DNA of 64,000 nt from an uncultured Ruminococcus sp. (GTDB lineage Bacteria; Bacillota; Clostridia; UBA1212): assembly GCA_902792515.1 (NCBI GenBank), contig CADAZX010000016.1, forward strand, positions 19,952 through 83,951, read 5' to 3'. The position numbers and the translations under genes are program-made. The notes beneath the pieces are model-generated. The model made no database searches. It was not told where the DNA came from and worked only from the letters and a program-made list of their open reading frames with translations. Shown one piece after another: positions 1 through 22,223 of the stretch. How positions within the stretch are numbered: position 1 is the first letter of the stretch; each line of letters opens with the position of its first letter.

Positions 1-1586
1 TCGATGACGCTTTGTTCAAAATCATCATATTCTCTTGGCGTCTTCTCGGGCATATTATCTTCTATCTCCACCTGTTCGGGATTATCGTTTGGCATCACAT
101 CTGTCGGTTCAGCATTATCCAAAGAATACTCATCAGAAGACATTTCAGTTTCGTCATTTGCAAATTGATTGTTCGGGATAGTGGAATCTTGAATATCTTC
201 ATTTAAACTCTCTATGCCGTCTTGTTCATTTACAAGAATTGCTTCAAGTTCAGGGCTGTCTTCCGGAATCCCTGCTGCAATAAGTTCATCCCTAAAGTCG
301 ACACTGTCATCGCCATAATCTATAGGCTCTTCACCCATTTCTTGCAAATAGGCATTGTTAAGATTTTGCCATTCGGGATCCTTTGAGTATTCTGCAAAAT
401 CGGACTGATTATAGTCATGGTTTGTATAGTAATCATATAGGCGATCATATGCCGACGGTTCAGTGCTTTCCGGCATTGATTCTGAAGAGCCATCGTTTTC
501 GACATTCACGTCCCCAGATGTTACCCCTTCTGGCATTTGGTTATCCCATGTGTCTGCAGCTACAGCCTGAGGGGTCTCATCCAAATAATATCCATCATCG
601 ATGTCACCACCCGGAACGCTTTCTTCTCCCACGTCCGCGGACACATCCTGAGGCATCTCGTCCGAATACTCTCCACCGTCAATATCCCCATCCGGGATGC
701 TTTCTTCTCCTGCGTCCACAGATATATCCTGCGGCGTCTCGTCTAAATAGTCCACTCCGTCGGCGTCACTATCCGGAACGCTTTCTTCTCCTGCATCTGC
801 GGATATATCCTGCGGCATCTCGTCTAAACAGTCCACTCCATCGACATCGCTGTCCGAAATGCTTTCATCTCCCGTGTCTGCATCCACATCCTGAGGCGTC
901 TCGCCCGAATACTCTCCACCGTCGAAGTCGCTGTCAGGCGTACTTTCGTCCACTGTATCTGTGGATACATCTGGAGGAGTCGCATCCAAATAGTCTGCAC
1001 CATCAAGGTCATTATCTGCACCACCGGCATCTTCTATATCTTCCGGAATTTCCTGAGGGGCTTCATCTCCATAGTCGTCACTTCCAAAGTCATTATCCGA
1101 ATAACTGTCGTCTCCTACATCTTCTGTGATCTCCTGCGGCATTTCTTCTCCGGTGCCGTCACTGCCGAAATCACTATCCGAATAACTGTCATCTCCTATG
1201 TCTTCGGAAATATCTTGCGGCATTTCTTCTCCGTAGTCGCCACTTTCAAAGTCGCTATCCGAATAACTGTCGTCTCCTACATCTTCAGAGATATCTTGCG
1301 GCATTTCTTCTCCGTAGTCGTCACTGCCGAAATCGCTGTCCGAATAACTGTCATCCCCGATATCCTCTGATATATCATCTGGAACTTCCTCTGATAATCC
1401 GTCGTTAAAAGAATCATCCGCAGAGTATGTATCTCCTGTATCCTCTGGGATATCATCAGTATAATCCGCGTCCGAGAATGAGTCGCCTGAATAATCTTCG
1501 CTTGAATAATCCGTATCAGAAAACGAATCGTCGGCGGGGGCGCTATAATCCGAAGTATCTACACTTGCATCAAATTCATCGCTCAT
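1..1586 (-). CDS. Polyacidic tandem-repeat protein. The N-terminal 528 codons are present and the gene continues past the window edge.
   Basis: Absent from the ORF track because there is no stop inside the window. I translated the minus frame (plus-strand triplets starting at multiples of 3) and it stays open from the ATG at 1586 to position 3. An AGGA Shine-Dalgarno lies just upstream, only 12 nt after the stop of the 1599..4280 gene. The protein starts MSDEFDASVDTSDYS... and contains ten 27-aa D/E/S/Y-rich repeats. Confidence 0.75.
   Translation of the reverse strand, partial: MSDEFDASVDTSDYSAPADDSFSDTDYSSEDYSGDSFSDADYTDDIPEDTGDTYSADDSFNDGLSEEVPDDISEDIGDDSYSDSDFGSDDYGEEMPQDISEDVGDDSYSDSDFESGDYGEEMPQDISEDIGDDSYSDSDFGSDGTGEEMPQEITEDVGDDSYSDNDFGSDDYGDEAPQEIPEDIEDAGGADNDLDGADYLDATPPDVSTDTVDESTPDSDFDGGEYSGETPQDVDADTGDESISDSDVDGVDCLDEMPQDISADAGEESVPDSDADGVDYLDETPQDISVDAGEESIPDGDIDGGEYSDEMPQDVSADVGEESVPGGDIDDGYYLDETPQAVAADTWDNQMPEGVTSGDVNVENDGSSESMPESTEPSAYDRLYDYYTNHDYNQSDFAEYSKDPEWQNLNNAYLQEMGEEPIDYGDDSVDFRDELIAAGIPEDSPELEAILVNEQDGIESLNEDIQDSTIPNNQFANDETEMSSDEYSLDNAEPTDVMPNDNPEQVEIEDNMPEKTPREYDDFEQSVI
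546..1355 (-). repeat. Coding tandem repeat, 81-nt period, about 10 copies, inside the polyacidic gene.
   Basis: Repeat peptides include DDSYSDSDFGSDDYGEEMPQDISEDVG and EESVPDSDADGVDYLDETPQDISVDAG. The periodicity is visible directly in the DNA (recurring gatatatcctgcggc / gaataactgtc blocks). Confidence 0.8.
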
Positions 1587-1598
1587 TTTTAACGTCCT

Positions 1599-4280
1599 TT
1601 ACTTCCCGATAGAATTATTAATTAGCGTTTCAGTCACTCTAATTCTTGTGTTGTATTTTATTCTCCTCCAAAGATGAACTTTTACGCACGTTAAGAGTTC
1701 CTTTGTGAAGGGTTCATCGTTGAGTTCCTCGATTATCAGCTTTGATATATGAGAGAAAACTCCTTCAAGTAACCCAAAATCCGTTGCTCCCGTTTTTATA
1801 TACTTGTTGAAGATTCGACGAGATATTTCTCGCGCAAGAATTCGCCTAGAGTAGTCACACTCTTTTGTACAATACTTGCATAGATTGCACTGAGGATACG
1901 GTCTTAGCAGTTCCTTTTTATCTGCCCAGTATTTACTTAATTGTTTAATTCCTTCATCAGAAAGAGATATGCTAATGTTGTTCTCCAAACGATAATCCGG
2001 AGTTATAACCTCCTCGGGTTCATCTAACTTGTTAAAAAACAGATACGCCTCGCCTGGCTTTAGTTTTGCCATTCTTTGGATCTGAGCATCATTCATGTTC
2101 ATACTGTCTCCGATTATCTGCTTATCTGCCGCCTCTACAAGTCTGAAGACCATTTTCATATCAGTTAGCGCAACAACATCTGTTGTGACTTTTCTTGGAG
2201 ACTGATCCGCAATAATCAAACCAACGCCGTAAGAACGAATCTCTGCCAGCATCCGCTTTACCAATCCTTGTGCGATTGCACTTGGATTAGCCTCTCCTTG
2301 TCCCGAATTAGTGTCTGCATCAAGAAGGACATGTGCTTCTTCAAGCAATATTACGTTCTTTAGGCCGCCTTCGCCGACATAATTGGCATTAACATATGCC
2401 AAAATTGAAAGCAAAAGTAGCGAAATAATTAGCGCCTTTTGATCTGAATTCTCAATTGCTGCTAATTCTATTACAGTTGGCTTTCGCAGAATGTCCTCAA
2501 TTGGAATAGAATGATACGTGTCGAAAAGATTCACGAGGCTGTTAAGTCTTACAATTCCGGCCCTTCCGATATTTCGGGCATCACCAGTGTATCCAATCTC
2601 GTCAAAAGTCTGTTGAAAGCACTTAATAAAATCAGTTATGTTGAATACTTTCCCCTTATCATCAATCGTGTATGTGTCCAGCCACCTGAAATCAGAATAG
2701 CAGTTGTTAATTGTTTCCTCAAAAATCTTGTCGAGAGGAGTAGACATTGAAACTGCTGCCGAAAAAGCCGTCTTGAGCGTCGATTTGTATGTCTCTAATT
2801 TAACATTTTTTGGCGGGACAAACGGATTGAAGACAAACGGAGATATATAGTTTTTCCCAGGGGTAAACACTTGCAAGTCAGGTATGCTTTGAACCAATGC
2901 CCGGTACTCATTCTTTGCGGGTTCTATAACTAAGAATGGAATTTTGTGGATTTTCCAAAGTCTATCTAAGAGGCTGACTGAAAACGTTGTTTTTCCTGAT
3001 CCCGGAGTTCCAACAATAAGCATATGCTTTGCAAGGTCTTTAAGCGAAAAACCTATAGTATCGCCTTTAGACGACGCCCGAAGCTTTCCGACCTGAATAT
3101 CACCAGCGTTAATAATGTTGGAAGTATATGTTTTGGCACCTTTCCCCGATTCGTCGACATTAAGTCCGGCGCCAATTCGCTCACTACCTATAGGCAACCT
3201 AAAAAACTCAGCAGCTTCTTCGGAGGTTATAATGTATGGAAGCCTGTAATAGCTTTCAGAAAACAGCCCTGAATTCCAAATTTGATTGTTTCGATACTTA
3301 TTTAGTATTGTCTCGTTAACCGCCCATGGTAACGGGTAAAAATTCCTGTCCTTGTTGACTTCCTGTCGTGACAAATCAATCAATCTCAGATTTGCTGTGC
3401 CGTCCGGGCCTGTTCCAATCTGCCCGGAGAGAACGCCAGCAATATTAGACACTGCCGACTGATTGCCAAGAACAAGAATATTGAATGTAAACAGAGCTCC
3501 TGCCTTTTTTTGTGAGTAATACTTATAGTTTTGCGCATGCTTATCCGCAAGGGCAAAACTGATATTGCCCACGCCATGATCCATTATGCCTTTGTTTAGC
3601 GTTTCAAGAAGCTGTGTTACCTTGTCTATCTCTGTCGATTCAGCAGGATCCAAAACTGTTGGAATTAACTGCATAGAAATTGCGCAAGCCGGATAATCAA
3701 TTAACACATTAACTACCCTGCTAAAATCATTTTCCGTTATTGGAATTCGATCATAAGCATAGCAATATGGCAACAATTGATTCTGTAAACTCTCGACTTT
3801 TTCCTCTTTAATGACGGCCTTAATGCTCGAATCGTTTATGCCGGCAACTATCGTTGATAAGGCATCGTAGCCTACTTCAGAAAATCCGTATTTTTGAAGT
3901 GTAAGTGTGGATGCAATTAGATCCATTAAAACCTTTAGCGACTCGTTCGCTAAAGCGGCTTTCGCATCTATCACTCTCACAATAATGAAGAGTTTAATCT
4001 CTGCGTGAAACGGCTGATTTTTAACTTCACGAGTAGCCCAGAGAAGTTCAAAAGAGATATCCTTTGAATATCCTGCAGCAGAGCTGATAGTTTTATATGA
4101 CTGATAGACTTCATTCAACAGCGTTATTGTCCCGGTTTTGTACTTCCCGACAATCTCATCCAAAACGCCTTGTCTATCATCAATTATAGATATATGTGGA
4201 ATGGAGGTTATTTGAAAACATCCAAGTGATATAACTTCTCCGTTTGCCAAACTCTCCGTCGTCGTTTTTTTATAATCCAT
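1599..4280 (-). CDS. HerA/FtsK-superfamily (DUF87-like) P-loop ATPase with a ~400-aa unassigned N-terminal region and a C-terminal Cys cluster.
   Basis: Walker A is MLIVGTPGSGKTT, Walker B is NVILLEEAHVLL, and GLIIADQSPRKV follows downstream. The CNLCKYCTKEC motif lies near the C-terminus. ATG at 4280 has an AGAAGGA RBS. Confidence 0.75.
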   Translation of the reverse strand: MDYKKTTTESLANGEVISLGCFQITSIPHISIIDDRQGVLDEIVGKYKTGTITLLNEVYQSYKTISSAAGYSKDISFELLWATREVKNQPFHAEIKLFIIVRVIDAKAALANESLKVLMDLIASTLTLQKYGFSEVGYDALSTIVAGINDSSIKAVIKEEKVESLQNQLLPYCYAYDRIPITENDFSRVVNVLIDYPACAISMQLIPTVLDPAESTEIDKVTQLLETLNKGIMDHGVGNISFALADKHAQNYKYYSQKKAGALFTFNILVLGNQSAVSNIAGVLSGQIGTGPDGTANLRLIDLSRQEVNKDRNFYPLPWAVNETILNKYRNNQIWNSGLFSESYYRLPYIITSEEAAEFFRLPIGSERIGAGLNVDESGKGAKTYTSNIINAGDIQVGKLRASSKGDTIGFSLKDLAKHMLIVGTPGSGKTTFSVSLLDRLWKIHKIPFLVIEPAKNEYRALVQSIPDLQVFTPGKNYISPFVFNPFVPPKNVKLETYKSTLKTAFSAAVSMSTPLDKIFEETINNCYSDFRWLDTYTIDDKGKVFNITDFIKCFQQTFDEIGYTGDARNIGRAGIVRLNSLVNLFDTYHSIPIEDILRKPTVIELAAIENSDQKALIISLLLLSILAYVNANYVGEGGLKNVILLEEAHVLLDADTNSGQGEANPSAIAQGLVKRMLAEIRSYGVGLIIADQSPRKVTTDVVALTDMKMVFRLVEAADKQIIGDSMNMNDAQIQRMAKLKPGEAYLFFNKLDEPEEVITPDYRLENNISISLSDEGIKQLSKYWADKKELLRPYPQCNLCKYCTKECDYSRRILAREISRRIFNKYIKTGATDFGLLEGVFSHISKLIIEELNDEPFTKELLTCVKVHLWRRIKYNTRIRVTETLINNSIGK

Positions 4281-4324
4281 AAATATCCTTCTATTCCTAG
4301 AAAACTGATATTATTCAAAATAAC

Positions 4325-4352
4325 GGTGCAATCCCATAACAGGGACCACACC
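4325..4352 (-). terminator. Intercistronic hairpin that is strand-specific because of G-U pairs, followed by a U-rich tract. Possible attenuator or partial terminator.
   Basis: The minus-strand RNA reads GGUGUGGUCCC-UGUUAU-GGGAUUGCACC, then GUUAUUUUGAAUAAU. Three of the pairs are G-U on the minus transcript and would be C-A mismatches on the plus transcript. Confidence 0.35.
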
Positions 4353-4424
4353 GCTATTTCACTAAGCCCCTCCTAGTCGGGCAATCGCCAAAAAAACATT
4401 ATTGTCAGACAGCAAAACAGCGAA

Positions 4425-5636
4425 TTAATCATTCACATCGCCATAGCTCTTGATATCAAAAGCTGTAGCATCGCCTGTAACTGACTGGTAAATACCGTTT
4501 AAAGCAACTTGTTTTTCGATGAAAGCTCTTGTGGCCATCGTAAACGGTTTTAATATTTCCTCAAGTTTTTCTCTTTCTGCGCTTATCTTAGCATTGTAAT
4601 CCTTATTATTGTTCACCATTTTGATAATCGGGAAAACGATACCCGCAACCGGAAGCAGGGCTAGCAGTTTAAGGGCGCCGTTCAAGCAGAGGCAAATCAG
4701 TATGAGTATCACACTAACAATAATAAGAGCAATCCATAAACCTTTTCCCTTCGGTTTAATGCTGTTAATAACCGCATTTTGTGCGTCAATCTGACTCTTT
4801 CTCATTGGATCTACAAATGTCTGATCATATCTTGAGTATCTGCCTTTATAATCAAGCCAGACGGTCATCAATTTCTCGCCATACTGAACTGTGATGCGGT
4901 AGAGCGTGAGGTATACTCTTTGGACTGTGTCGATACGCACATTTGAACTGATGTGGCCATTCCTCGTATTCTGGTTCCGAATGCTGTTTTCAGCATTTGC
5001 TTTCAAAAGCGCCTCTGCGCGAGGTTTAACATCATTTTCAAACGCCGTTGCCTGAGGATAATTAAATTTGTTCATTTGAACATCGGCAGGAAGTTCAAGA
5101 TCTTCAATGTCTATCAAGTCAGAAACCGTCATAAGATCCGGGAATTGGTCGACCACACCCTTAAGATCTTTGTTGCCGCAAACAAAATATGTTTCACTGC
5201 ATGAAACAGCAGAACTGACCGGACTCCACTCCGTGTATCTCTCTGTGACTATACTGTCGCCTTGAATTTTTTGCCGCTCTCTCTGATAACCGATTTCATA
5301 ACTGTATGTTCCCGTTCCAGATGCCATAAACAAAAACATCGGAACACAAATATGCTCTTCCTTGACTATAGTTGCTCTTTGATAAACATCCAAAGGAGAC
5401 GCTTGCTCACTCGCAATTATGTCTAACACCTTTTTATGTCTTAGACTCATAGATGCATAAAGGTTAACGCCGGAGTTAATATTATCTTTCGCAAGAATCT
5501 CATTATTCTTGACCATATTCTCCAGTTGGTTAACTGTTCCACAGTAACTGCATTCTACTCTGTTTCCTGCAGCCTTATTTAAATTGAGGGCCGCCCCACA
5601 GTTAGAACAAACATACGCTTTGACTTGATTTGCCAT
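4425..5636 (-). CDS. Zinc-ribbon protein with two C-terminal transmembrane helices. First gene of the island operon.
   Basis: Start re-set to the ATG at 5636 (MANQVKAYVCSNCG...), which has an AAGGAAAGGAAG RBS. The ORF-track start at 5663 is a TTG. The zinc ribbon is CX2C-X15-CX2C. Hydrophobic spans are GLWIALIIVSVILILICLCLNG and LKLLALLPVAGIVFPIIKMV. Confidence 0.7.
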   Translation of the reverse strand: MANQVKAYVCSNCGAALNLNKAAGNRVECSYCGTVNQLENMVKNNEILAKDNINSGVNLYASMSLRHKKVLDIIASEQASPLDVYQRATIVKEEHICVPMFLFMASGTGTYSYEIGYQRERQKIQGDSIVTERYTEWSPVSSAVSCSETYFVCGNKDLKGVVDQFPDLMTVSDLIDIEDLELPADVQMNKFNYPQATAFENDVKPRAEALLKANAENSIRNQNTRNGHISSNVRIDTVQRVYLTLYRITVQYGEKLMTVWLDYKGRYSRYDQTFVDPMRKSQIDAQNAVINSIKPKGKGLWIALIIVSVILILICLCLNGALKLLALLPVAGIVFPIIKMVNNNKDYNAKISAEREKLEEILKPFTMATRAFIEKQVALNGIYQSVTGDATAFDIKSYGDVND

Positions 5637-5676: not shown

Positions 5677-5700
5677 TGTCAAAAATGAAACTTTTTGACA
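5677..5700. repeat. hix-like recombination site A (TGTCAAAAA-TGAAAC-TTTTTGACA).
   Basis: Perfect 9-bp inverted arms with a 6-bp spacer and a central AA dinucleotide. Confidence 0.6.
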
Positions 5701-5861
5701 CTGAACAATATTTGCGAAGTATTAGAAAACAGTACTATTATTTGCATTACAGTAAGTCAAAAAGATAACACCCGAAAAGAAAAATCAATCCGTACCTTCA
5801 ATAGGGTTTAGTTTTTTTTAGTATTATGCAATTTATTAGGTGATTTTTGACAAGAAATCGC

Positions 5862-5890
5862 TTGACAGACGGCTGAATAACCGATATACT
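5862..5890 (+). promoter_or_regulatory. Consensus sigma-A-type promoter TTGACA-17 nt-TATACT. It faces away from the operon and is antisense to the recombinase gene.
   Basis: -35 at 5862-5867, 17-nt spacer, -10 at 5885-5890. No plus-strand ORF lies downstream. Confidence 0.65.
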
Positions 5891-5906
5891 TAAGCATAAG
5901 TAAAAG

Positions 5907-5930
5907 TGTCAAAAAGTTTGCCTTTTGATA
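5907..5930. repeat. hix-like recombination site D (TGTCAAAAA-GTTTGC-CTTTTGATA).
   Basis: The left arm is identical to site A and the right arm matches 7 of 9 positions. The 6-bp spacer has central TT, which is AA on the other strand. The site ends 3 bp before the recombinase stop codon. Confidence 0.55.
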
Positions 5931-5933: not shown

Positions 5934-6557
<624 letters not shown>

Positions 6558-6586
6558 TCATTATATTAACACAGTCTCGGATCCGG

Positions 6587-6615
6587 TTGACACTCCCTCT
6601 TGATTTTGCTACACT
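6587..6615 (+). promoter_or_regulatory. Promoter TTGACA-17-TACACT for the 6700 gene.
   Basis: -35 at 6587-6592 and -10 at 6610-6615, about 85 nt upstream of the GTG start. Confidence 0.55.
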
Positions 6616-6699
6616 TTAGTCGGCAAAAAACATCACCCTGCCGCCGGCGCGCGGCGAGCGATTTTATAGAGTTTTATACGATTCAGGAGGAGATATACC

Positions 6700-8241
6700 G
6701 TGAAAAAAGTGATTGCAGTTTTGGCGGCGGTTGTTGTCGCGATGGCGGTTTTGGCAGTTTCGGCGCCGGTTTTTACGCCGGTTTTTGCGGACGAGACCGT
6801 GACCACAGGGGAGGCGCCCGTTGGAGACGGCGGGGAGACCGAGTATGTGAGGCTTACGGGCGACGGATTTGACCCGTATGCGACGTTTTCGTTCAGCGAA
6901 AATGGTGCGAACGCGTCGATCGATCCGGACACCGTGACGTGGGCGGCGATCCGCTACAGGATGGGCGCGAGGTTCAACGAGAACAACGTTGAGTATATTG
7001 CGCAGATGTACGTCAGCCCTGCCGCGGAGCCGTTCGTGCCCGTGCACTACAGGTTTACCGACGGGTGGGATACGCTCATCGTCGACATGACGTCCGTTGC
7101 GGCGCTCTACGGAAGGGAGTCGATCTGGGGTTCGGGCAGCTACACGAACACAGAGGAGATCAGGCTTGACCCGCTGGAGCCGGACAGGGATGCGGAGAAT
7201 TTTGACGACTCGACGGGGCGCGGAATCGTGACCGAAGGGGATTACGTCGACATCGCGTGGATCGCGTTTTTCGAAAAGGAGGAAGACGCGAAGGCCTACA
7301 CCGGCAAAGAGGACACGCCGTATTGCATTTTGGATGCGGGAAGCCTTTCGAGCCCCTACACGATCCACAATCTGAAGGCGGAATATATGGGCAGTGCGCC
7401 GGTAGATCCCGATGCGACTGAGGATCCCGCGGGCGAGTCTTCCGGACCGTCGGCGCTTTTCGCGTTCACGTATGAGGACTACGTGAACGACGCGCTTTTA
7501 GGCGGTAGCAAAAATCTCATTAACGACGTGTATTTCGGCGAAAAGTGCTACGTGATTGAGGTGGCACAGGGCGGAGACCCCTACCAGGAATTGAGTTTCG
7601 GCACGCTCGCGACGCTTGGAGACATCGATGAGATTTCCGCCGACGAAAACAAGGTCGTGCAGCTCGCGGTTCGCGTGAACACAACGGAGGGCGGCAAAAA
7701 CGGCTCGCTCTACTGGCAGACCGACGAAAACCCGGGCTACGGCGAGGCCCAGAACCAGACGTACAAGTACGAGGAAACGGACGGAATCCAGCTCGTGACA
7801 ATCGACTTTTCGCGCGTCAGGAAGTGGACCGGCACCGTCGGGAACCTCCGCTACGACATGTTTTTTGAGGCGGCAGAGGACACTTCGGTAGAGCTCTATT
7901 ACGCGGCTTTCTTTAAGGACGCGGCTTCCGCGAAGGCGTTCGGCGAAAAGTTCCTTGCGGAGGGACTGCCCGCGACGCCCGAACCGACAGAGGCGCCGAC
8001 CGCTACGCCTGCTCCGGAAGCGACCGAGCCGCCGGCTGAAGAGCCTACCCAGGCCCCTGTTGAGGAGCCCACAAACGAGCCCGCCGCGGAGCCTACCGAT
8101 GCGCCGGTTGCCACCGAAGCGCCTCAGAAAAAAGGCTGCGGAAGCGCGCTTGGCGGAATTTCCGCTGTTGTCGTTCTGGCGGCTGCCGGTTTTGGCGCAG
8201 CTTTTGCGATGCCGCGCAGGAACAAGGGCGAAAAGGAATAA
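6700..8241 (+). CDS. Secreted, C-terminally membrane-anchored protein of unknown function.
   Basis: GTG start with AGGAGG 9 nt upstream. Signal peptide is MKKVIAVLAAVVVAMAVLAVSAPVFTPVFA. A Pro/Thr/Glu linker leads to the C-terminal QKKGCGSALGGISAVVVLAAAGFGAAFAMPRRNKGEKE. Confidence 0.7.
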   Translation: MKKVIAVLAAVVVAMAVLAVSAPVFTPVFADETVTTGEAPVGDGGETEYVRLTGDGFDPYATFSFSENGANASIDPDTVTWAAIRYRMGARFNENNVEYIAQMYVSPAAEPFVPVHYRFTDGWDTLIVDMTSVAALYGRESIWGSGSYTNTEEIRLDPLEPDRDAENFDDSTGRGIVTEGDYVDIAWIAFFEKEEDAKAYTGKEDTPYCILDAGSLSSPYTIHNLKAEYMGSAPVDPDATEDPAGESSGPSALFAFTYEDYVNDALLGGSKNLINDVYFGEKCYVIEVAQGGDPYQELSFGTLATLGDIDEISADENKVVQLAVRVNTTEGGKNGSLYWQTDENPGYGEAQNQTYKYEETDGIQLVTIDFSRVRKWTGTVGNLRYDMFFEAAEDTSVELYYAAFFKDAASAKAFGEKFLAEGLPATPEPTEAPTATPAPEATEPPAEEPTQAPVEEPTNEPAAEPTDAPVATEAPQKKGCGSALGGISAVVVLAAAGFGAAFAMPRRNKGEKE

Positions 8242-12159: not shown

Positions 12160-13434
12160 TCACTCCGCCTTTTCCGCCGCATCAAGCGCCTGTGCCAGGT
12201 CCTCAATGATGTCGTCCGTGTTTTCGAGGCCGACGGAAAGCCGGACCATTCCCGCGTTAATGCCCGCGGCAACGAGCTGTTCGTCCGTCAGCTGGCGGTG
12301 GGTCATTGAAGCCGGGTGCAGCACGCACGTGCGGATGTCGGCGACGTGTACCTCGCGGGAGCACATTTTGAGCGCGTCCATGAACTTCTCGGCGGGTTCG
12401 CGTCCGCCCTTCACGTCAAGCGAAATGACGCCCGAGCAGCCGTCCGGCATGTATTTCCGCGCAAGCGCATGGTATCTGTCACCGGGAAGTCCCGGGTAGC
12501 GGACAGTCTCGATCGCCTCGTGGTTTGAAAGATACTCAGCCACTTTGAGAGCGTTTTTGCAGTAGCGCTCCATTCTGACAGCCAGAGTCTCAAGCCCCAG
12601 GTTGAGCAGGAAGCCCGAATGGGCCGACGGATACGCCCCGAAGTCTCTCATAAGCTGCATGCGCGCCTTGCCTATATAGGCTGCCCTGCCGAATTTTTCC
12701 GTATATACAAAGCCGTGGTAGGACTCGTCCGGTTCTACGAGCTCCGGGAATTTGCCGTTGTCCCAGTTGAAGGTGCCGCCGTCAACGATAACGCCGCCTC
12801 CCTGCACCGCGTGTCCGTCCATATATTTTGTGGTGGAATGCACTACTATGTCCGCTCCGAAATCGATTGGCTTGCAGAGAATCGGGGTCGCAAACGTGTT
12901 GTCGACGATCAGAGGAACGCCGTGCGCATGTGCGATCCTCGCAAATTTTTCGATATCAAAAACGGACAGCGCCGGATTCGCGAGCGTCTCGCCGAAAACG
13001 AGCTTCGTGTTGGGCTTGAAGGCCCTGCCGATTGTCTCTTCATCCGCGTCCTGGTCGACGAAAATGCACTCGATCCCGAGTTTTTTCAGCGTTACCGCAA
13101 AAAGATTCAGCGTTCCGCCGTAGATCGTCGACGCGGAGATCAGGCTGTCGCCGGAATTGCATATATTGAGCACGCTCATCAGGCTCGCCATCTGTCCCGA
13201 AGACGTGCACATCGCGCCGACGCCGTGCTCGAGGTCGGCTATTTTTTTCTCTACGCAGTCAACGGTCGGGTTCGAAAACCTCGAATACATGTGCGCGTTC
13301 GGGAAATTGAAAAGCTCTCCGATCTCCTCCGCCGTGTCAAAAACATACGTGGTGCTCTGAACTATGGGCATCACTCCGGGTTCACCGTTTTTGGGCCTGT
13401 AGCCCGATCTGACGCATTTTGTCTCGTCTTTCAT
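12160..13434 (-). CDS. metY: O-acetylhomoserine sulfhydrylase / Cys-Met-metabolism PLP enzyme.
   Basis: PLP-lysine motif HSTTKYMDGH. N-terminal VRSGY...PIVQSTTY. 424 aa. Confidence 0.8.
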   Translation of the reverse strand: MKDETKCVRSGYRPKNGEPGVMPIVQSTTYVFDTAEEIGELFNFPNAHMYSRFSNPTVDCVEKKIADLEHGVGAMCTSSGQMASLMSVLNICNSGDSLISASTIYGGTLNLFAVTLKKLGIECIFVDQDADEETIGRAFKPNTKLVFGETLANPALSVFDIEKFARIAHAHGVPLIVDNTFATPILCKPIDFGADIVVHSTTKYMDGHAVQGGGVIVDGGTFNWDNGKFPELVEPDESYHGFVYTEKFGRAAYIGKARMQLMRDFGAYPSAHSGFLLNLGLETLAVRMERYCKNALKVAEYLSNHEAIETVRYPGLPGDRYHALARKYMPDGCSGVISLDVKGGREPAEKFMDALKMCSREVHVADIRTCVLHPASMTHRQLTDEQLVAAGINAGMVRLSVGLENTDDIIEDLAQALDAAEKAE

Positions 13435-13540
13435 ACCGCAATTTCCTCACTTTCGCACGTCGCGTGACGTTGATCCGCCTTCGCGGGCATTGTATTTTTG
13501 TTTGCCGGAAGGCCTGCCTTAATGCCGCCCTCCGTTGGTT

Positions 13541-13569
13541 ATTTTATTCTCCGCCCGCCGCTTTGTCAA
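13541..13569 (-). promoter_or_regulatory. Promoter TTGACA-17-TAAAAT for metY.
   Basis: On the minus strand the -35 is at 13569-13564 and the -10 at 13546-13541. This leaves a leader of about 100 nt. Confidence 0.55.
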
Positions 13570-13754
13570 GGCGTGTCCCGAGCCGTTTCTGCTCCCGAGC
13601 AGTTTCTGCTCCCGTTTCTCTCCCGCCTGTCCGCAAGCCGTTCTTCACACGTGTCTTCCCGTCACTCTCCGCGGCGGTTTTCACACCGGTTTAACACGGT
13701 TCTTCATACCTTTTATTCAGGCAGCGGCCGCTCTTCTCACCGCCGCTCCAAATC

Positions 13755-13804
13755 AAAAAGAGGCTGCCCGCCCCCCGCAAGATCGCGGGAACGCGAACAG
13801 CCGC
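13755..13804 (-). terminator. Intrinsic terminator of the 13836..15185 gene.
   Basis: The minus RNA pairs GGCUG...CAGCC with an inner CCCGC...GCGGG, followed by UUUUU. Homologous to the terminator at 15412-15463. Confidence 0.65.
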
Positions 13805-13835
13805 TTTTATTAATTATTCTTTATGAAGAAAGATA

Positions 13836-15185
13836 TCAGAAAGCTTTCTTTTTAAGAATGACGAGCGCAACCGCAGCTGCTGCAACGACGAAGAGGATCA
13901 TCGTGGCGTCGCCGGTCTGAGGCTCATCTCCGGGATCGGGCTCGGTAGCCGCCGGACCGGTGTATTCAACAACAGTATTCGGAAGGTTCAAACCGCCCTC
14001 TGTGAGAGCCGAACCGTCAAGATCAATAACCGTACCGCTCGCAAGCTTAACACAGGCTTTGATCGTATTTGTGCCTTTAAGGTCGGCTGTAGGAACAACA
14101 ATCAGGAATCTCTGACCGAATTCGCCGCCGTTTTCTGCTGCTTTTACAGCGTCTTCTGTGGTGAACGAGAACGCGCTGTCATAAACGGGCTCGTTGCCGT
14201 TGATCTTATATCCAAAGGAATCAACAGCTTCATCGAATCCGACCCATCCGTAAAACGCGACGTTAGAGATACTGCCGTTGCTTCCGTCAACCGGTCCGAG
14301 ATCTGCAACCGTATATTCTCCGGTAGCGATGTTGATGTAGTTGGTCACAAAAGCGTCAAAGCTGCGTCCGCGAAGCACGGGAGTGGTCGCAGGCTGAGGA
14401 TCGGCTGCCTTTTTGATTTCGGAAACCGAGATTTCGTTGATTACAACGTGGTTGTTTCTCTGATATATCTGAATCGTTCCTTCATCAAGAACGGTTACGT
14501 CACCGCTGAACACTTCGTTGCCGGCGGCATCATATGCCTTTGCGGCGGTATAAGCGCCGTCCGCAAGTCCGGACAGCTCAATTGTAACGAGTTCTTTTCC
14601 GTCGATTCTGATCGTGATTTTGTCACCGCTGTCAACAATCGTGAACTCTGCCGCTACACCGGGGTCAAAGCCTTCGGGACGTGCAAGCGTGAATGCAGGA
14701 GCGCTGGCGTTCTCGCCGCCGTCACAGAACGTGATGCCAATGTTGTTGCCAAGGGTTGAATTTCCCGCGCCGAAAATATCAACAGCGATGCCGACGGCTG
14801 TCTCGGAAGGTGCCGGAACGCCGAATCTTCCGCCGTTCATAAGCTGAAACTCATTGTTGGTACGGATACCGAATCCGTAATAGCAGTCACGTTTGTCGCC
14901 GTAAAACTTGAGGGTGGCGACATAGTCCGAATACATCTCTGCCGTGCGGACAATAGGTGAACTGGCGACCCAGTCTGCGCCGGAACCGAGATGAAGAGCG
15001 CCGTCCTGAAGAGCGTATCCCGACCAGGCTACGAGCTCATCTGCAGCAAGTTCATCTCCGGAGAAGTCCGCTTCAAGAAGCTTGTCGCCTGCTTCAACGG
15101 TGTCGGCATGGCTGTCGGCAAATGCAGGAATTAAGAGTGCGGCCATCATTGCTGCGATGACTGCAACAACTATAATCTTTTTCAT
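13836..15185 (-). CDS. Secreted protein with a sortase-type C-terminal sorting signal; function unknown (LamG/DUF1080-like N-terminal part suspected).
   Basis: Signal peptide is MKKIIVVAVIAAMMAALLIPAFA. The C-terminus is EPQTGDATMILFVVAAAAVALVILKKKAF. Confidence 0.7.
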   Translation of the reverse strand: MKKIIVVAVIAAMMAALLIPAFADSHADTVEAGDKLLEADFSGDELAADELVAWSGYALQDGALHLGSGADWVASSPIVRTAEMYSDYVATLKFYGDKRDCYYGFGIRTNNEFQLMNGGRFGVPAPSETAVGIAVDIFGAGNSTLGNNIGITFCDGGENASAPAFTLARPEGFDPGVAAEFTIVDSGDKITIRIDGKELVTIELSGLADGAYTAAKAYDAAGNEVFSGDVTVLDEGTIQIYQRNNHVVINEISVSEIKKAADPQPATTPVLRGRSFDAFVTNYINIATGEYTVADLGPVDGSNGSISNVAFYGWVGFDEAVDSFGYKINGNEPVYDSAFSFTTEDAVKAAENGGEFGQRFLIVVPTADLKGTNTIKACVKLASGTVIDLDGSALTEGGLNLPNTVVEYTGPAATEPDPGDEPQTGDATMILFVVAAAAVALVILKKKAF

Positions 15186-17892: not shown

Positions 17893-20343
17893 TTATTTCC
17901 CGATCACTGACGACCAGAACGTCTGGCCGTAAATGTCGGTGAACATGTAGACCGCGCTGGTGGTGCCGGAAACTCTGACGTCGCTGAGTTTAAGCTCACC
18001 GTCCACAACGAGCTGGTCGCCGAACATGTAGGAGTCGAGGAACTCGCCGTCGTAGCTGTAGTAGTCGCACAGGAAGTCGATTTTCGCTCCGTTTTCGATC
18101 TCGTCGATCTGCTTCGCCGCAGTTTCGGTCACGTTTTCGGCGTAGTCGAAGCTCACGCAGGAGATGATTCCGTTCGGGTTGGCGTTGTCGTAGACCGCAA
18201 TCAGGTCGGCTCGCTGGCCGTTGTAGAGGCACGGGATTCTGTAGGTCATCGTGTAGTTCTTGCCGTCGTCGACAGTGTTGACGTGGTAGAACGCTACAGG
18301 TCTGCCGTTGATCGCCGGCCACGTGCCGTCGTACTCGCCCACAAGGCCGCCTTTTTGGTTGACTGTGTACGCGTTGTCGACGCCCAGGTCGATGTAGCCG
18401 GTGCCGTCGTCAAGGAACACGTTGAGGCCGATCTCCTGAACCAGCGCCCACTTCGCGTCGCTGAGGTAGATAACGTCCTTGCCGTCGTCCTTTTTGAACA
18501 TGAAGTCTTTCGCGTCAAGGTGGTTCGCGCTGATGAACGAAGACGTCTTGCCGATGTCCAGCCCTTCAAGGAACGTTCCCGCGATGCCGCCGATGTCGAT
18601 TCCGGACGAGCCGCCCAGGAAGCTTGTGAGCAGCGAGGAAATTCCGCTCGAGGTGCCGTTGCTCGGTGATGAAACGCTGCCGAGCGTTCCGAGGAGTGAA
18701 GTGAGCGGCGAAACTGAGGAACCGCCGGAAACGACCTGACCGGACGTCTCGACCTGCGCGAACTGCTTGATGCAGGAGGAGTAAGCCGAGTCAACACCGA
18801 TCGCGTTGTACGTCTTGATTGCCGCGTCGACCTTGCCCGCGCTTCTGTACGGGAAGTAGATCGACAGTCCGTAGGAGTTGACCATGTCGGACGACGTGCG
18901 GTTGTACTTGACCGCGCTCAGAACGGTTTTCGCGAGCGCCTCGCCTTCCTTGGTGTTCATTCTGCCCGCGAGGTCAACGAGGTCGACCTGGTCGATCTTG
19001 TTCTTGGAGAACTCGCGCGTCCCGCTGCGTGCGTCGGAAACCTGCGTGTAGTTGTCGGAATTGAGGAGCGCCGTCGTGCTCTTCGCGAAGTCGGTCAGAC
19101 CGCCGGGAATGGTTGACTCAAGTTCGGCGAGGTCGACAACGGAGAGCGTCGTTTTCGCGTTCTTTATATACGTCGCGCAGAAATCCGTGAAATCGTCAAC
19201 GATATTCTTGCCGATCTCGACGGTCGGCATCGACGTGTTCTTGGAAAGGTTCGTGAGCCAGTTCGTGTAGTACCAGCCCGCGCCGGGTTCGGTCTCCTCG
19301 GAGGCGATCATGTAGTCCGCGTACTGGGTGAGCATTATCGCGTTCTCGGCAGTCGCCATCAGGCACGCGTCGAAGCCGACGAAATCAAACTTGACGCCGC
19401 CGTTTTTGAGCGCCGTGTTGATTCCCGCGAGCGACATCGAACCGGAGCTCGAAAATCTCTCGTCGTGGCCGTAGCCGCTGACCGATCCGCCGCCGTGATC
19501 CCAGAAAATGAGCATGTTGCGGTTCGCGGGGTAATTCGTCTTGCACCAGGTGATGAACTTCGAGAGCGTCGAGGGATCCGTCATCGACACGTTGCCCATG
19601 TTCTTTTCAAGAAGCTTGAGCGTTCCGTCCTCGACCTTGTAGATCTGGTTCGTCGAGTTGCTGATCGACGACGTCTGCCACGACTTGCAGCCGCCCGTGT
19701 AGATGAGGATGTTCACGTTGTCGGAAAGTGTCGCCTTGCGCATCTCCGCGATGTCCTTGGTGGCCATTCCGTACTGCGACTCGAGGTCGGTGCCGCACAT
19801 GTAGATCATGATCGTGACGACGTCCTTGTTGCCGCCCTTGATGGTCGTGTACTTGTCGCGCGCGCCGCTCGCCACGTTTTTATTGAGCGTGCCGGTGTTG
19901 GCCGTCCTTGTCCATCCGGAAGTAGTGCTCGACTGCGTGAAGCTCGTCAGCGCCGTTCCGGTTGGCACGTCGTCACCGCCGCCTCCTCCGCCGCCGAACA
20001 GCGACGAAAACAGTCCGTTTCCGGTGCATCCGAACAGCCTGAGCACAAGGAATATCACAAGTGCGAGCACGATCACGATAATTATCGTCTTGAGGCTCTT
20101 GCCGCCTCCGCCACCGCCCGAAAACAGGCTGCCGAGCAGGCCTGAAAGAATGCTTCCTCCCGTGCCTCTCGTTCCGCCGTCTTCACCGCCTGCGCCTCTT
20201 CCGGATTTGCCCGTTCCCGGCCTTCCGGAGTAGCCGCCCTGGTTTCCGACAGGACCGGTTCCGCGGCCTTCACCGCGTCTTCCGACTTCCTGCCCGTCGC
20301 CGGTCACGTTTCTGTTTCTTCTTCTTGGCGTATTGTCTGCCAT
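17893..20343 (-). CDS. Clostripain-family (peptidase C11) cysteine protease with a Gly/Arg-rich N-terminal tail and a TM anchor.
   Basis: The His/Cys dyad context is LIFWDHGGG and FVGFDACLMAT. TM helix IIIVIVLALVIFLVLRLF. Confidence 0.8.
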   Translation of the reverse strand: MADNTPRRRNRNVTGDGQEVGRRGEGRGTGPVGNQGGYSGRPGTGKSGRGAGGEDGGTRGTGGSILSGLLGSLFSGGGGGGKSLKTIIIVIVLALVIFLVLRLFGCTGNGLFSSLFGGGGGGGDDVPTGTALTSFTQSSTTSGWTRTANTGTLNKNVASGARDKYTTIKGGNKDVVTIMIYMCGTDLESQYGMATKDIAEMRKATLSDNVNILIYTGGCKSWQTSSISNSTNQIYKVEDGTLKLLEKNMGNVSMTDPSTLSKFITWCKTNYPANRNMLIFWDHGGGSVSGYGHDERFSSSGSMSLAGINTALKNGGVKFDFVGFDACLMATAENAIMLTQYADYMIASEETEPGAGWYYTNWLTNLSKNTSMPTVEIGKNIVDDFTDFCATYIKNAKTTLSVVDLAELESTIPGGLTDFAKSTTALLNSDNYTQVSDARSGTREFSKNKIDQVDLVDLAGRMNTKEGEALAKTVLSAVKYNRTSSDMVNSYGLSIYFPYRSAGKVDAAIKTYNAIGVDSAYSSCIKQFAQVETSGQVVSGGSSVSPLTSLLGTLGSVSSPSNGTSSGISSLLTSFLGGSSGIDIGGIAGTFLEGLDIGKTSSFISANHLDAKDFMFKKDDGKDVIYLSDAKWALVQEIGLNVFLDDGTGYIDLGVDNAYTVNQKGGLVGEYDGTWPAINGRPVAFYHVNTVDDGKNYTMTYRIPCLYNGQRADLIAVYDNANPNGIISCVSFDYAENVTETAAKQIDEIENGAKIDFLCDYYSYDGEFLDSYMFGDQLVVDGELKLSDVRVSGTTSAVYMFTDIYGQTFWSSVIGK

Positions 20344-20463
20344 TTTGAATGCTCCTTAAACTGTAAAGTCTTTAGTTTCTCCGGTATTTGCCGGGATCTG
20401 CGTCCTTGCTGCCGGATTTGCGCCATTATTTGCGCCATTTTATGCGTCCGTTTGTCCGTGAAG

Positions 20464-21399
20464 TTACTCCGCCGGCGTCTTGGGCGTGATCGTTCCGAGC
20501 GCCTTCGCGTTGCTCGCAAGCTCCTTTTCACTCAGAACTCTGTCGTAAAAACGGATGCCCGTTATCGTCGCGTCGTAGGATTTTTCCTCGCTGGGATGGC
20601 CGATGAACATGTGTCCCGCTATGTCCGTGCTCGAAGCCGCGTCTCTTGAGTCGATGAACTCGCCGTTCAGGTAGAGCTCGATCTCGCCGTCCGCCTCAAA
20701 CGTTACCGCGATCGTGGACGTTGCGCAAAGCTCGGCGGCGTCGCCCACCATGTTCGGTCTGGAACCGATTCCGTTGTTGCACTTGAACTCAAGCGCGTCG
20801 TCGGAAACGCGGATGAAAAGCGCGAAGTTGTCGTTGCCCGAGCTGTTCAGGAACGTCGCGTAGTTGCTTCCGGTGATTACCAGGTCCTTCATCGCGAACT
20901 CAACCGTGTAGGCCTCGCCGTTGATGAGCTCGGCAATCCTGTCGGGAAGATTGATTCTGCGCATCGAGACGAAAAGGCCGTCGTCACGCCACTCGCAGTA
21001 ATCGGAAAGCTTGAGCTCAATGTCGAGGCCGTTGCCGCTCAGGTCGCCCCAAACCGCGGACGTCTTGTCCATGCCGTTGGCGGTGTTGTAGTTGCCCTCG
21101 TAAAGAGCAACCAGACCGTCGGTGACGTATGGAATGTTGAGGTTCATGTTCTCGATCGGGGAAGGCGTCTTGTCGGGGTCCTCTGTGGGCGCTTCCGTGG
21201 GCTCCTCGGTGGGAACTTCCGTCGGCTCTTCTGTCGGAACCTCTGTGGGCGCTTCGGTGGGCTGCTCGGTGGGAGCTTCCGTTACCGTTGCCGGCGCCTC
21301 CGTGGGCGCGGGTTTCTGATCGTCAGGCTTCGCGCACGCCGCGAAAACGGCCGTCACGCATATCGCCAGAATTATCGCAATTATATATTTGGTTTTCAT
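20464..21399 (-). CDS. LamG/concanavalin-like lipoprotein with an (EAPTE)n linker.
   Basis: Start at 21399 (MKTKYIIAIILAICVTAVFAAC lipobox), with GGAGG 9 nt upstream. The C-terminal ITGIRFYDRVLSEKEL is typical of LamG-type domains. Confidence 0.6.
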   Translation of the reverse strand: MKTKYIIAIILAICVTAVFAACAKPDDQKPAPTEAPATVTEAPTEQPTEAPTEVPTEEPTEVPTEEPTEAPTEDPDKTPSPIENMNLNIPYVTDGLVALYEGNYNTANGMDKTSAVWGDLSGNGLDIELKLSDYCEWRDDGLFVSMRRINLPDRIAELINGEAYTVEFAMKDLVITGSNYATFLNSSGNDNFALFIRVSDDALEFKCNNGIGSRPNMVGDAAELCATSTIAVTFEADGEIELYLNGEFIDSRDAASSTDIAGHMFIGHPSEEKSYDATITGIRFYDRVLSEKELASNAKALGTITPKTPAE

Positions 21400-21464
21400 T
21401 ACAAACATCCTCCTGTTTGCGTGTACTTTATTTTATTTTACACCCGCGCACGCGACGTGTCAAT

Positions 21465-22130
21465 GCCGCACTTTGCATCGCGCCCCTCACTTGACTGGGC
21501 AAAGCCCAGAATCGTTCGAACCGCAACATAAAGCTGCGGCGGCTCTAGATAAGGAAGGGTTGATGCACTTTGCATCGCGCCCCTCACTTGACGACGCACT
21601 TTATGTTGCGTCTCTCACTTGACTGGGCAAAGCCCAGAATCGTTCGAACCGCAACATAAAGCTGCGGCGGCTCGAAATAAGGAAGCATTGCTGCAATTTA
21701 TATTGCACCGCTCACTTGACCGCTTCGCGGTTGCGCCGCAGGCACCTTATTATTCCGTAAAAGCCTGTGTGTTTCGCACGAAGGCGACTTTTAGCAGCCG
21801 CACTTTAAGTTGCGTCCTTCACTTGACCGCTTCGCGGAATCGTTCATGCCGCCAACATAAAGCTGCGGCGTCGTTGAATTAGAGACACACAGGTTTTATC
21901 GTTCACGTCGCAATATCAAGCTGCGTCGGCTCTTCCACAAGGTTGATATTTCTCGCGGCAATCGCCTTCGGCACCGCAGCATTTCTCCAAATCCCGTATG
22001 TCGTACGAAGGAACGATTCTGTGCTTTGCACAGTCAAGTGACGCCGCACGACATACGGGATTTTTCGTTCGAACCGCAACATAAAGCTGCGGCGGCTCTT
22101 CCACAAGGTTGATATTGCTCGCGGAATCGT
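21465..22130. repeat. Nest of palindromic and dispersed repeats in a divergent intergenic region.
   Basis: Identical 59-nt copies lie at 21487-21545 and 21615-21673 (128-nt period). At least 9 copies of the hairpin motif CGCAACATAAAG(C)TGCG occur in both orientations. A 13-bp inverted repeat spans 21992-22004 and 22048-22060. Confidence 0.8.
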
Positions 22131-22194
22131 TAAATTTCCGCCCCCACGTTTTTGACTCAGGCCCCGTTTGTGCACTGTTCCCGCTTTATCTCCG

Positions 22195-22223
22195 TTGACA
22201 AAACCCTTCCAAATTGCGATAAT
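22195..22223 (+). promoter_or_regulatory. Promoter TTGACA-17-GATAAT.
   Basis: -35 at 22195-22200 and -10 at 22218-22223, just upstream of the AGGAGA RBS and TTG start at 22248. Confidence 0.55.

Follow-up and report, generated by a model that had tools for sequence, protein, structure and literature searches.

What kind of system is encoded at the low-GC end of the 64,000 nt of uncultured Ruminococcus sp. DNA analysed here (contig CADAZX010000016.1; this whole stretch is hereafter "the window")? Three genes lie there on the minus strand. Gene 1 (4425-5636) encodes a protein of 403 aa counted from an ATG, and the listing of open reading frames (ORFs) carries its reading frame further upstream, to a TTG at 5663. 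Gene 2 (1599-4280) encodes an ATPase of 893 aa. Gene 3 (1-1586) runs for 528 codons and is open at the window edge. An earlier annotation made from the letters alone (the sequence-only reading) took these genes to be a horizontally acquired three-gene operon that matches no named system. We propose that the first 6.6 kb of the window are the promoter-proximal end of a cassette that is mobile, probably phase-variable, and serves to produce and export a polymorphic antibacterial toxin. Export in this proposal is inferred from gene linkage, and we regard the proposal as evenly poised between right and wrong.

The three genes are co-directional and separated by 144 nt and 12 nt, with a purine-rich sequence resembling a Shine-Dalgarno sequence before each of the three starts, all as the sequence-only reading stated. 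Its claim of horizontal acquisition is likewise borne out, by a step in GC near 6600: the composition profile of the window gives 0.38-0.47 up to ~6600 and 0.55-0.60 further on, and the DNA of the three genes has ~40% GC in a genome of 55-60% GC. The right-hand edge of the acquired segment falls at 6550-6700, where GC climbs from ~0.38-0.47 to 0.59. We found no tRNA gene and no Rfam element at this edge within the window. On the other side, beyond window position 1, low GC persists for at least 5 kb more on a near-identical contig (L001; individual loci are referred to by number), with unrelated-looking genes.

What does gene 3 encode? In the window we see the first 528 of 768 codons, which comprise the N-terminal motif MSDEFDASVDTSD, a polyacidic leader free of Lys and Arg, and a linker. 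Lys, Arg and His are all absent from the first ~380 residues of the translation, and Asp and Glu together make up a fraction of ~0.30-0.38. Tandem Repeats Finder detects two arrays of an 81-nt (27-aa) acidic unit on the minus strand, at 552-929 (4.7 copies) and 1062-1376 (3.9 copies). The full-length gene was recovered from L001, which was obtained by exact look-up of the gene 2 protein. There it spans 12695-15001 and encodes 768 aa. The C-terminus contains the residues GTCGPTS...DHWITVTG and has a weak match to Peptidase_C39_2 (0.005, below cut-off), which weakly suggests that the window-type toxin domain, located beyond window position 1, is of the papain-like Cys-peptidase type. A sequence search of the PDB with this C-terminus found nothing.

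It is the relatives of gene 3 that indicate its nature. Some 80 proteins begin with a common motif, M-x-[DE]-E-[FY] (W also occurs at the last position of the consensus), and then run into acidic repeats (MSDEFDASVDTS in the window; MDEEFDTSVDTS, MGDEYDSSVD, MSEEFNDD and MREYSDSED elsewhere). Their C-termini fall into more than 20 unrelated clusters when the last 220 residues are clustered with BLAST. Several of these C-termini match toxin domains in Pfam: an ADP-ribosyltransferase exoenzyme (ADPrib_exo_Tox) in L020 (1.2e-27); the "Papain fold toxin 1" glutamine deamidase (Gln_amidase) in L024 (2.4e-15), L033 (3.7e-12) and L093 (3.3e-11); and a WHH nuclease in L082 (8e-13, with Colicin-DNase at 2.6e-11) and L028 (3.5e-13, with Colicin-DNase at 1.4e-10). 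Weak Pfam matches suggest zincin-like HExxH C-termini in L002 and L010.

The identity of the next ORF tracks that of the toxin. Behind the zincin type comes a 98-aa family (6/6 loci) and behind deamidase type 2 a ~75-aa family (5/5 loci); three more pairs of toxin and next-ORF clusters agree, each in 2/2 loci. The spacing between the toxin gene and the next ORF is -36 to +19 nt in nearly all pairs, and 138 nt in L042. Exchange can be seen among very close relatives: L002 has an ATPase 100% identical to that of the window and a toxin ~99% identical to the window type (that of L001) over the first 186 residues, and beyond residue ~186 it has a different C-terminus, followed by a small gene different from that of L001. 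At several loci, two or three tandem substrates share the N-terminal motif. A conserved head, a swappable tail and a linked, co-varying gene together constitute the grammar that defines polymorphic toxin systems (PMC3482391). Judged by its sequence and that of its relatives, gene 3 is the leader or trafficking half of a polymorphic toxin, and the small gene that follows it is a putative immunity gene. The sequence-only reading called gene 3 an extreme polyanion; the acidity is as described, but the swappable C-termini of its relatives mark it as more than a mere polyanion.

How far does the operon extend beyond the window? The sequence-only reading had advised recovering the complete gene 3 and whatever follows it; L001 shows both. 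The order on L001 is invertase, gene 1, ATPase, the 768-aa gene 3, a 163-aa ORF that overlaps the stop codon of gene 3, a 382-aa Band_7_1/SHOCT protein and, adjoining it, a 225-aa protein with four transmembrane (TM) segments (the 4-TM protein). The 382-aa protein matches Band_7_1 (SPFH) at 2.9e-33 and SHOCT at 8e-6, and has no predicted TM segment. The window edge therefore cuts the operon within gene 3. Instead of three genes, the cassette on L001 has an invertase with its inverton and at least six genes: gene 1, ATPase, toxin, immunity-like gene, Band_7_1/SHOCT and 4-TM. The gene string of L001 recurs at the loci of two more ATPase relatives, in a 59%-identical clade, and across 80 species-level loci.

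These 80 loci come from a conservation scan in which one genome per species was kept. Gene 2 has more than 2000 relatives, and the best 120 are all ~893 aa long, 72-79% identical, and from Lachnospiraceae, Oscillospiraceae, Ruminococcaceae and others. Across the 80 loci, ATPase identity is 58-79% in all but one (L092, 51%). The Bacillota among them include Ruminococcus albus, Faecalibacterium prausnitzii, Blautia hansenii, Paenibacillus, Erysipelotrichaceae and Acholeplasmataceae; the other carriers are Bacteroidota (Prevotella, Alistipes, Bacteroides and Paludibacter), Treponema, Planctomycetaceae and a metagenome-assembled genome of Fibrobacteria. Among the carriers are cultured strains: Ruminococcus albus AR67 (L023), Blautia hansenii MSK.15.26 (L040), Bengtsoniella intestinalis BP47G (L022) and Faecalicatena contorta ET55 (L085).

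Genes in all fetched loci were labelled by ORF calling followed by phmmer and hidden Markov model (HMM) searches, and a recurrent string emerges. It begins, where present, with a trio consisting of a Zn-ribbon-TPR protein (ZnR-TPR, ~197 aa), a protein with two TM segments and a soluble domain (2TM, ~210-250 aa) and a 2TM-YidD protein (~150-180 aa), and continues with the ATPase. After the ATPase come zero to five small 4-6-TM proteins, the acidic protein, an optional ORF of 60-170 aa, the Band_7_1/SHOCT protein and the 4-TM protein. In most Bacteroidota, a ~360-aa gene-1-like protein follows the 4-TM gene. The acidic proteins range from 125 to 1298 aa, with an Asp plus Glu fraction of 0.25-0.6. 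The ATPase, the acidic protein, the soluble SPFH protein (Band_7_1 plus SHOCT) and the 4-TM protein form a conserved operon core in five or more phyla, and the first two of these co-occur at nearly all loci. Thus, of the three-gene association that the sequence-only reading proposed, the pairing of ATPase and acidic protein holds nearly everywhere. Gene 1 itself does not follow this pattern, having only four close relatives, but a wider gene-1 family, present in 34 loci, does accompany the ATPase.

The small 4-6-TM proteins (~175-210 aa), encoded in zero to five tandem copies between the ATPase and the acidic protein, match no family. Examples are found in L007 (12692-13779), L045 (five copies), L020, L021, L026 and L043. 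Their varying copy number suggests that they are either channel subunits or immunity proteins against membrane toxins.

A distant relative of the ATPase was found on a mobilizable plasmid of Priestia megaterium, pN447-3.1 (L096; NZ_CP064271.1, 8305-14778), where it is annotated as hypothetical. It has 35% identity to gene 2 over 72% of the query and is followed by a gene for a 1135-aa acidic repeat protein; there is no SPFH gene. The link between ATPase and acidic protein therefore reaches beyond the main family, and onto a mobilizable plasmid.

What is the role of gene 1? The protein (4425-5636, minus strand) begins with a CxxC...CxxC Zn ribbon, continues with a ~250-aa domain made of very long beta-hairpins, and ends in a TM hairpin and a long helix. 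The Zn ribbon has weak Pfam matches, and an AlphaFold 2 (AF2) model (mean predicted local distance difference test score, pLDDT, of 77) shows both the ribbon and the TM hairpin, in agreement with the membrane-tethered partner described by the sequence-only reading. A Foldseek search with this model gave no significant neighbour. Weak structural matches to beta-pore-forming toxins and secretins were driven by the long hairpins, and we rejected them.

Close relatives of gene 1 are few, four among 5.8 billion proteins. A wider family was defined by iterated HMM searches within the fetched loci. In its 34 loci, the gene lies directly upstream of the ATPase gene in the window, in Treponema and in Clostridia of the termite gut, and follows the 4-TM gene in Bacteroidota. 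It is striking that the gene-1 family and the trio rarely occur together. Among non-redundant loci with enough flanking sequence, 14 have the gene-1 family and no trio member, 16 lack gene 1 and carry two or three of the trio genes, and two have both. Furthermore, the Zn ribbon of gene 1 (residues 1-51) is homologous to that of ZnR-TPR (hhalign, 96% probability, E 4e-9). No match was found by hhalign between the gene-1 family and the 2TM, YidD, 4-TM or Band7 families, nor any similarity by BLASTP between gene 1 and the 2TM proteins of other loci. The YidD membrane-insertion-factor domain of the trio is well supported (2.5e-18; TIGR00278 8.7e-15, above cut-off). Near-exclusive occurrence and the shared Zn ribbon together indicate that gene 1 is an alternative component that substitutes for the trio. 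We therefore consider gene 1 a genuine alternative component of the system, and a candidate membrane adaptor.

The ATPase encoded by gene 2 has a family-specific N-terminal domain (aa 1-~390), a single P-loop core of the HerA/FtsK clade (aa ~395-760), with GTPGSGKTT as Walker A and LLEEAH as Walker B, and a C-terminal part (residues ~795-893; window 1599-1900, minus strand) in which a conserved Cys cluster precedes a confidently modelled helical domain. The motifs GTPGSGKTT, LLEEAH and ADQSP and the C-terminal Cys cluster are invariant across the family, and the core matches DUF87/HerA in Pfam (5.7e-10) and, with the family profile, Sulfolobus HerA (4d2i, 6e-17). Sequence matches in the PDB are all to HerA proteins and confined to this core. 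Hence, the motifs and clade assignment given by the sequence-only reading stand, as does its separate N-terminal half, and gene 2 is an active-looking ATPase of the FtsK/HerA/VirB4 clade with intact motifs. Within the Cys cluster (PYPxC...C...C), C798, C804 and C808 are invariant in the main clade; the cluster may be a metal site or a dock for the Zn-ribbon partners.

The N-terminal domain of gene 2 sets it apart from HerA. A search with the N-terminal 395 residues alone found 221 clusters at 50% identity among 1.84 billion representatives, and the full-length members among the 150 best matches listed are all ~830-920 aa long. This uniform length argues for one architecture rather than a promiscuous domain. 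The AF2 model of gene 2 has a pLDDT of 80-94 over residues 1-365 and a poor ATPase core (mean pLDDT 62). When the model was compared with the PDB using Foldseek, 13 chains were found at E<=0.001, all of them TrwK/VirB4 of the R388 type IV secretion system (T4SS), with E values of 3e-11 to 6e-7; there is no HerA or FtsK structure among the top 50 matches. The alignments extend over ~800 columns and include the N-terminal half. TM-scores are only ~0.3, a consequence of the unreliable ATPase core in the model. A broader ATPase alignment, built via distant representatives, was still dominated by the main clade, and the modelled core was still poor. At the sequence level there is no match to VirB4 at cut-off; the NCBIfam models VirB4_plasma and TrbC match weakly, far below cut-off. 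The predicted fold is suggestive of a VirB4-like two-domain architecture, conferred by the N-terminal half.

How is the operon controlled? Within the low-GC DNA, at 5934-6530 on the minus strand, is a gene for a small serine recombinase of the DNA invertase type (198 aa, with a C-terminal helix-turn-helix, HTH). It matches Resolvase in Pfam (1.8e-28), the PHROG 125 DNA invertase (1.6e-52) and, below cut-off, the NCBIfam Mpi-family master invertase (2e-10). The gene is directly upstream of an inverton. A repeat search identified an inverted repeat whose left, operon-proximal arm lies at 5679-5702 (TCAAAAATGAAACTTTTTGACACT) and whose right arm lies at 5905-5928 (AGTGTCAAAAAGTTTGCCTTTTGA). The repeat is 24 nt long, 88% complementary, with a 15-nt perfect core. 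The 202 nt that it encloses (5703-5904) are a putative invertible segment and hold the best sigma70-like site of the region. This site, TTGACA-17-TATACT at 5862-5890 on the plus strand, matches 11/12 consensus positions and is the sole near-consensus site that a consensus scan found in the intergenic region. Since it is on the plus strand, the assembled orientation faces away from the operon (OFF-like). After inversion, as inferred from the segment coordinates, the site would lie ~70 nt upstream of gene 1 and face it. The putative phase-variable promoter noted in the sequence-only reading is thus real as a sequence feature.

Similar arrangements occur elsewhere in the family. L032 (7407-7577) and L072 (7775-7941) each have, immediately before the operon, an invertase of their own and an inverted repeat of 21-24 nt around ~125 nt. 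These two share a repeat core, ATCAAAAGGT.TACC, that differs from the window repeat, and promoter scans of both invertons were ambiguous. L093 and L094 have a Resolvase gene upstream of the operon, with no inverted repeat detected beside it. In L095, an end-truncated ORF occupies that position. The recurrent linkage to an invertase supports phase variation. The arrangement resembles invertons of the Hin/Gin/Mpi type, in which a small serine recombinase with a C-terminal HTH lies beside a short segment bounded by 21-24-nt inverted repeats, upstream of an operon. It differs from them in that only one orientation is seen here and that the promoter is assigned by consensus scan only. We conclude that the cassette is probably phase-variable through an invertase-driven inverton.

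How might these components work together? We propose that the VirB4/HerA-type ATPase would form a hexamer docked at the membrane through gene 1 as a Zn-ribbon/TM adaptor, and would recognise the N-terminal motif of the toxin. ATP would then drive threading of the unfolded polyanionic leader, with the toxin domain in tow, through a channel of small TM proteins. The SPFH protein may organise this export channel, in the way that flotillin organises the type VII secretion system (T7SS). The immunity protein would shield the producer and its kin, and inversion of the 202-nt segment would switch the operon ON in a subpopulation. There is precedent for two of these steps: ATPases of the FtsK/HerA superfamily power both T4SS and T7SS (PMC3482391), and membrane recruitment of the soluble Band_7_1 protein YdjI requires the membrane proteins YdjG and YdjH (PMC8581546).

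Several observations weigh against this proposal. No experiment or sequence feature directly shows export, and the loci, those of the diderm Bacteroidota, Treponema and Planctomycetota among them, showed neither a cell-wall hydrolase nor an outer-membrane component. The substrates have neither a signal peptide nor a trafficking domain known to Pfam, and the window's own toxin domain is weakly assigned (the Peptidase_C39_2 match at 0.005) and lies outside the window. The acidic proteins of Bacteroidota are short and have coiled-coil ends, with no recognisable toxin domain and no immunity-like gene; the core cannot, therefore, serve toxin delivery in every host. By sequence, the proteins nearest to the ATPase core are HerA proteins, defence-associated ones included, and the likeness to VirB4 comes from a model with a poor core (mean pLDDT 62) and TM-scores of ~0.3. 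The inverton has one orientation, apparently OFF, in all five assemblies (the window and L001-L004), and no inversion was observed. The flipped junction was not found in JGI contigs, where just one contig carries the locus and the search has no power.

Could the cassette be a defence system instead? The ATPase, as a HerA-type protein, would sense invading DNA and free a gene 3 toxin otherwise held by the small downstream antitoxin, resulting in abortive infection or another form of defence against mobile elements. We consider this unlikely. By sequence, gene 2 shares a HerA-clade ATPase core with SIR2-HerA, DUF4297-HerA, MADS mad8 and DndH-DptH: among PADLOC models it matches mad8 (6.6e-18), several defence HerAs (1e-14 to 1e-8) and DndH, it matches an NCBIfam anti-phage HerA model (1.5e-11), and solved defence HerAs are its nearest PDB sequences after Sulfolobus HerA. 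Low-GC islands, phase variation and swappable effectors are also common in defence systems. However, all these matches cover the generic ATPase core alone, those to the solved structures are weaker than that to Sulfolobus HerA, and the scores are far under the family cut-offs where cut-offs exist. Where HerA has a HAS barrel, gene 2 has a 390-aa N-terminal domain, and the fold search favours VirB4 over HerA.

The partners that define HerA defence systems are also missing. There is no SIR2, DUF4297, NurA, methyltransferase or Dnd/Dpt partner, and no SIR2 or DUF4297 model in PADLOC matches any operon protein. For MADS, the sole mad match besides that of mad8 to gene 2 is a 17-bit match of the invertase HTH to mad1. 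Gene 1, gene 3, the SPFH protein, the TM protein and the small genes have no PADLOC match at all. More generally, PADLOC, Pfam, NCBIfam and PHROGs searches of all operon proteins gave just generic matches to the ATPase core, Resolvase, Band_7_1/SHOCT, YidD and TPR, and no complete named system, as the sequence-only reading had surmised. Also weighing against a defence function are the full grammar of a polymorphic toxin, with its conserved N-terminus, disordered leader, secreted-type toxin domains and co-varying immunity genes, and the two or three tandem substrates with the same N-terminal motif at several loci. The sequence-only reading had weighed an anti-phage or anti-plasmid module against a surface or secretion module. 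A conflict module in the broad sense survives our analysis, and the evidence favours inter-bacterial toxin delivery, which corresponds to the secretion option, over an anti-phage or anti-plasmid role.

The Bacteroidota loci raise a second alternative: the system may export or anchor a polyanionic surface or matrix protein, for cation binding, adhesion or biofilm formation, with toxin domains a secondary addition in some Bacillota. These loci keep the ATPase, SPFH, 4-TM and gene-1-like genes together with short acidic or coiled-coil proteins, with no toxin or immunity gene, and phase variation is typical of surface structures. On the other hand, neither a cell-wall anchor nor a lipobox or signal peptide is present in the acidic proteins, and the C-termini in Bacillota are enzymatic toxins with immunity genes. 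We regard this alternative as improbable, and its mechanism, export, is the same as in toxin delivery; it is the purpose of the cargo alone that differs.

Is the cassette an accessory of conjugative elements? The VirB4-like ATPase could feed a DNA-mimicking polyacidic protein through or alongside a T4SS into the recipient, for anti-restriction, establishment or killing. The predicted fold fits this idea: the VirB4/TrwK structures of R388 (PDB 7o42, 7o43, 8rtd and 8rtb) are the sole significant structural neighbours of the gene 2 model, over ~800 columns, and like gene 2 these proteins have ~800-900 aa, belong to the FtsK/HerA superfamily and are co-encoded with small 2-TM proteins. VirB4 binds the 2-TM protein VirB3, and polyanionic stretches free of Lys and Arg resemble DNA-mimic anti-restriction proteins. 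In L007 and L008, the operon lies in a region resembling an integrative and conjugative element (ICE), beside a VirB4/TraG-type ATPase, a sortase, a CHAP hydrolase and an integrase, and the distant relative from Priestia megaterium, with its 1135-aa acidic repeat protein, is plasmid-borne. Nonetheless, we found no gene for VirD4, VirB6, VirB8, VirB1, a relaxase or a pilin in the window or within 10 kb in L001, L010 and L093, and the gene strings show that most loci examined lack T4SS genes within +/-10 kb; such genes were seen only in the ICE flanking L007. Homologues thus lie inside a conjugative element only occasionally, and the consistent conjugative embedding that the neighbourhood survey proposed in the sequence-only reading might have revealed was not found. 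Furthermore, the operon encodes its own conserved membrane components, and the presence of a cognate immunity gene in the donor is easier to reconcile with kin-protected antagonism than with anti-restriction. A conjugative role is accordingly quite improbable.

A module for envelope stress or membrane repair of the PspA/YdjGHI type, merely adjoining an unrelated toxin-immunity pair, would explain why Zn-ribbon/TM, multi-TM and soluble Band_7_1 SPFH proteins mirror YdjG, YdjH and YdjI of B. subtilis pspA-ydjGHI (PMC8581546), but the match is architectural only and this is very improbable, since no Pfam-annotated locus gene list includes PspA/Snf7, the ATPase and acidic protein, which pspA-ydjGHI lacks, are linked as tightly as the SPFH pair across five or more phyla, and the whole set travels as one low-GC cassette. 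By our own reading, the published ydjG forward primer translates to MIISYKCPNC, which looks like a Zn-ribbon-type start and would parallel gene 1 and ZnR-TPR (PMC8581546).

If the cassette delivers a toxin, how does it relate to described delivery systems? As in polymorphic toxin systems such as the T7SS LXG toxins of Bacillota (PMC3482391), there is a conserved N-terminal region, a long linker, recombining toxin C-termini (ART, Tox-PL1 deamidase, WHH/colicin DNase and peptidases) and a downstream cognate gene, and the toxin-immunity end is replaced between strains. As in T7SS neighbourhoods, an ATPase of the FtsK/HerA superfamily is encoded beside the toxin. In contrast to those systems, the N-terminus is not WXG, LXG, LDXD, Rhs, MuF, a signal peptide or any Pfam family, and the leader is a polyacidic repeat free of Lys and Arg. 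The 2012 catalogue of polymorphic toxins (Zhang, de Souza, Anantharaman, Iyer and Aravind) mentions no such trafficking mode (PMC3482391). Unlike the T7SS ATPases EssC and YueA, which have two or three ATPase domains, gene 2 has one P-loop domain and a putatively VirB4-like N-terminal domain. The SPFH/SHOCT and 4-TM partners, and ZnR-TM or ZnR-TPR/2TM/YidD, are not T7SS components, and there is no WXG or LXG Pfam match in the neighbouring genes of the loci examined. The defining partners having been looked for and found absent, the cassette is not a member of the T4SS, T7SS, SIR2-HerA, DUF4297-HerA or MADS. We also considered S8-PTS (PMC9424270, 2022) and rejected it as a different system. In full-text searches we found no description of an operon combining such an ATPase, acidic protein and SPFH protein, although this is not proof that none has been published. 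From its gene content, we rate the cassette as a polymorphic toxin system with an undescribed trafficking apparatus and what appears to be a dedicated motor of the FtsK/HerA/VirB4 superfamily.

A bolder proposal, which we make tentatively, is that this apparatus is a previously unrecognised secretion or delivery system. Its parts would be one VirB4/HerA-like ATPase, a scaffold of SPFH protein and small TM proteins. It would act on an N-terminal M-x-[DE]-E-[FY] motif with a DNA-like polyanionic leader, and in Bacillota would carry exchangeable toxins under invertase ON/OFF control. It would have spread by horizontal transfer among gut and rumen Bacillota, Bacteroidota, Spirochaetota, Planctomycetota and Fibrobacterota.

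What would be the significance of such a system? A compact cassette of 6-8 kb would equip many abundant anaerobes of the gut and rumen, among them Lachnospiraceae, Oscillospiraceae, Faecalibacterium, Ruminococcus albus, Blautia, Prevotella, Alistipes and Treponema, with a route of toxin delivery beyond the described secretion pathways. This would explain how toxins that lack a signal peptide, LXG or Rhs module exit these cells, and the cassette would supply new toxin-immunity pairs behind strain-level antagonism and kin discrimination in the microbiome. It would also be a tractable model for a DNA-pump-type ATPase handling a polyanionic polypeptide, and a further case of invertase-controlled bet-hedging in costly warfare genes. 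An ATPase identity of 59-79% across phyla marks the cassette as an unusually successful mobile trait.

The same low-GC DNA carries other genes. On L001, after a gap of ~0.7 kb from the 4-TM gene, there is a second co-directional gene set (18150-22682). It encodes a 301-aa protein whose N-terminus is a Zn ribbon (MINYKCKNC...), one of 294 aa in which a vWA-like DVTGSMG motif was recognised by eye and which has no Pfam match, a 397-aa adenylosuccinate-synthetase-like protein (PF00709, 8e-38) and a protein of more than 1100 aa with a faint SseB match. Among the loci, this set is confined to L001 and L002. Since it is absent from the others, it is probably separate cargo, and possibly another conflict system.

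On the other side of the island, just beyond its edge in the window, a plus-strand gene of host GC (6700-8241) encodes a 513-aa protein with an N-terminal hydrophobic, signal-like segment, a C-terminal linker rich in Pro, Glu, Thr and Ala, and a terminal hydrophobic anchor. There is no Pfam match on record for it, and we take it to be a probable surface protein. A second dip in GC, to 0.46-0.49, occupies the other end of the window (62000-64000), beside a tRNA-Ala CGC gene (63557-63632) that is the sole tRNA gene of the window. This dip may represent another insertion.

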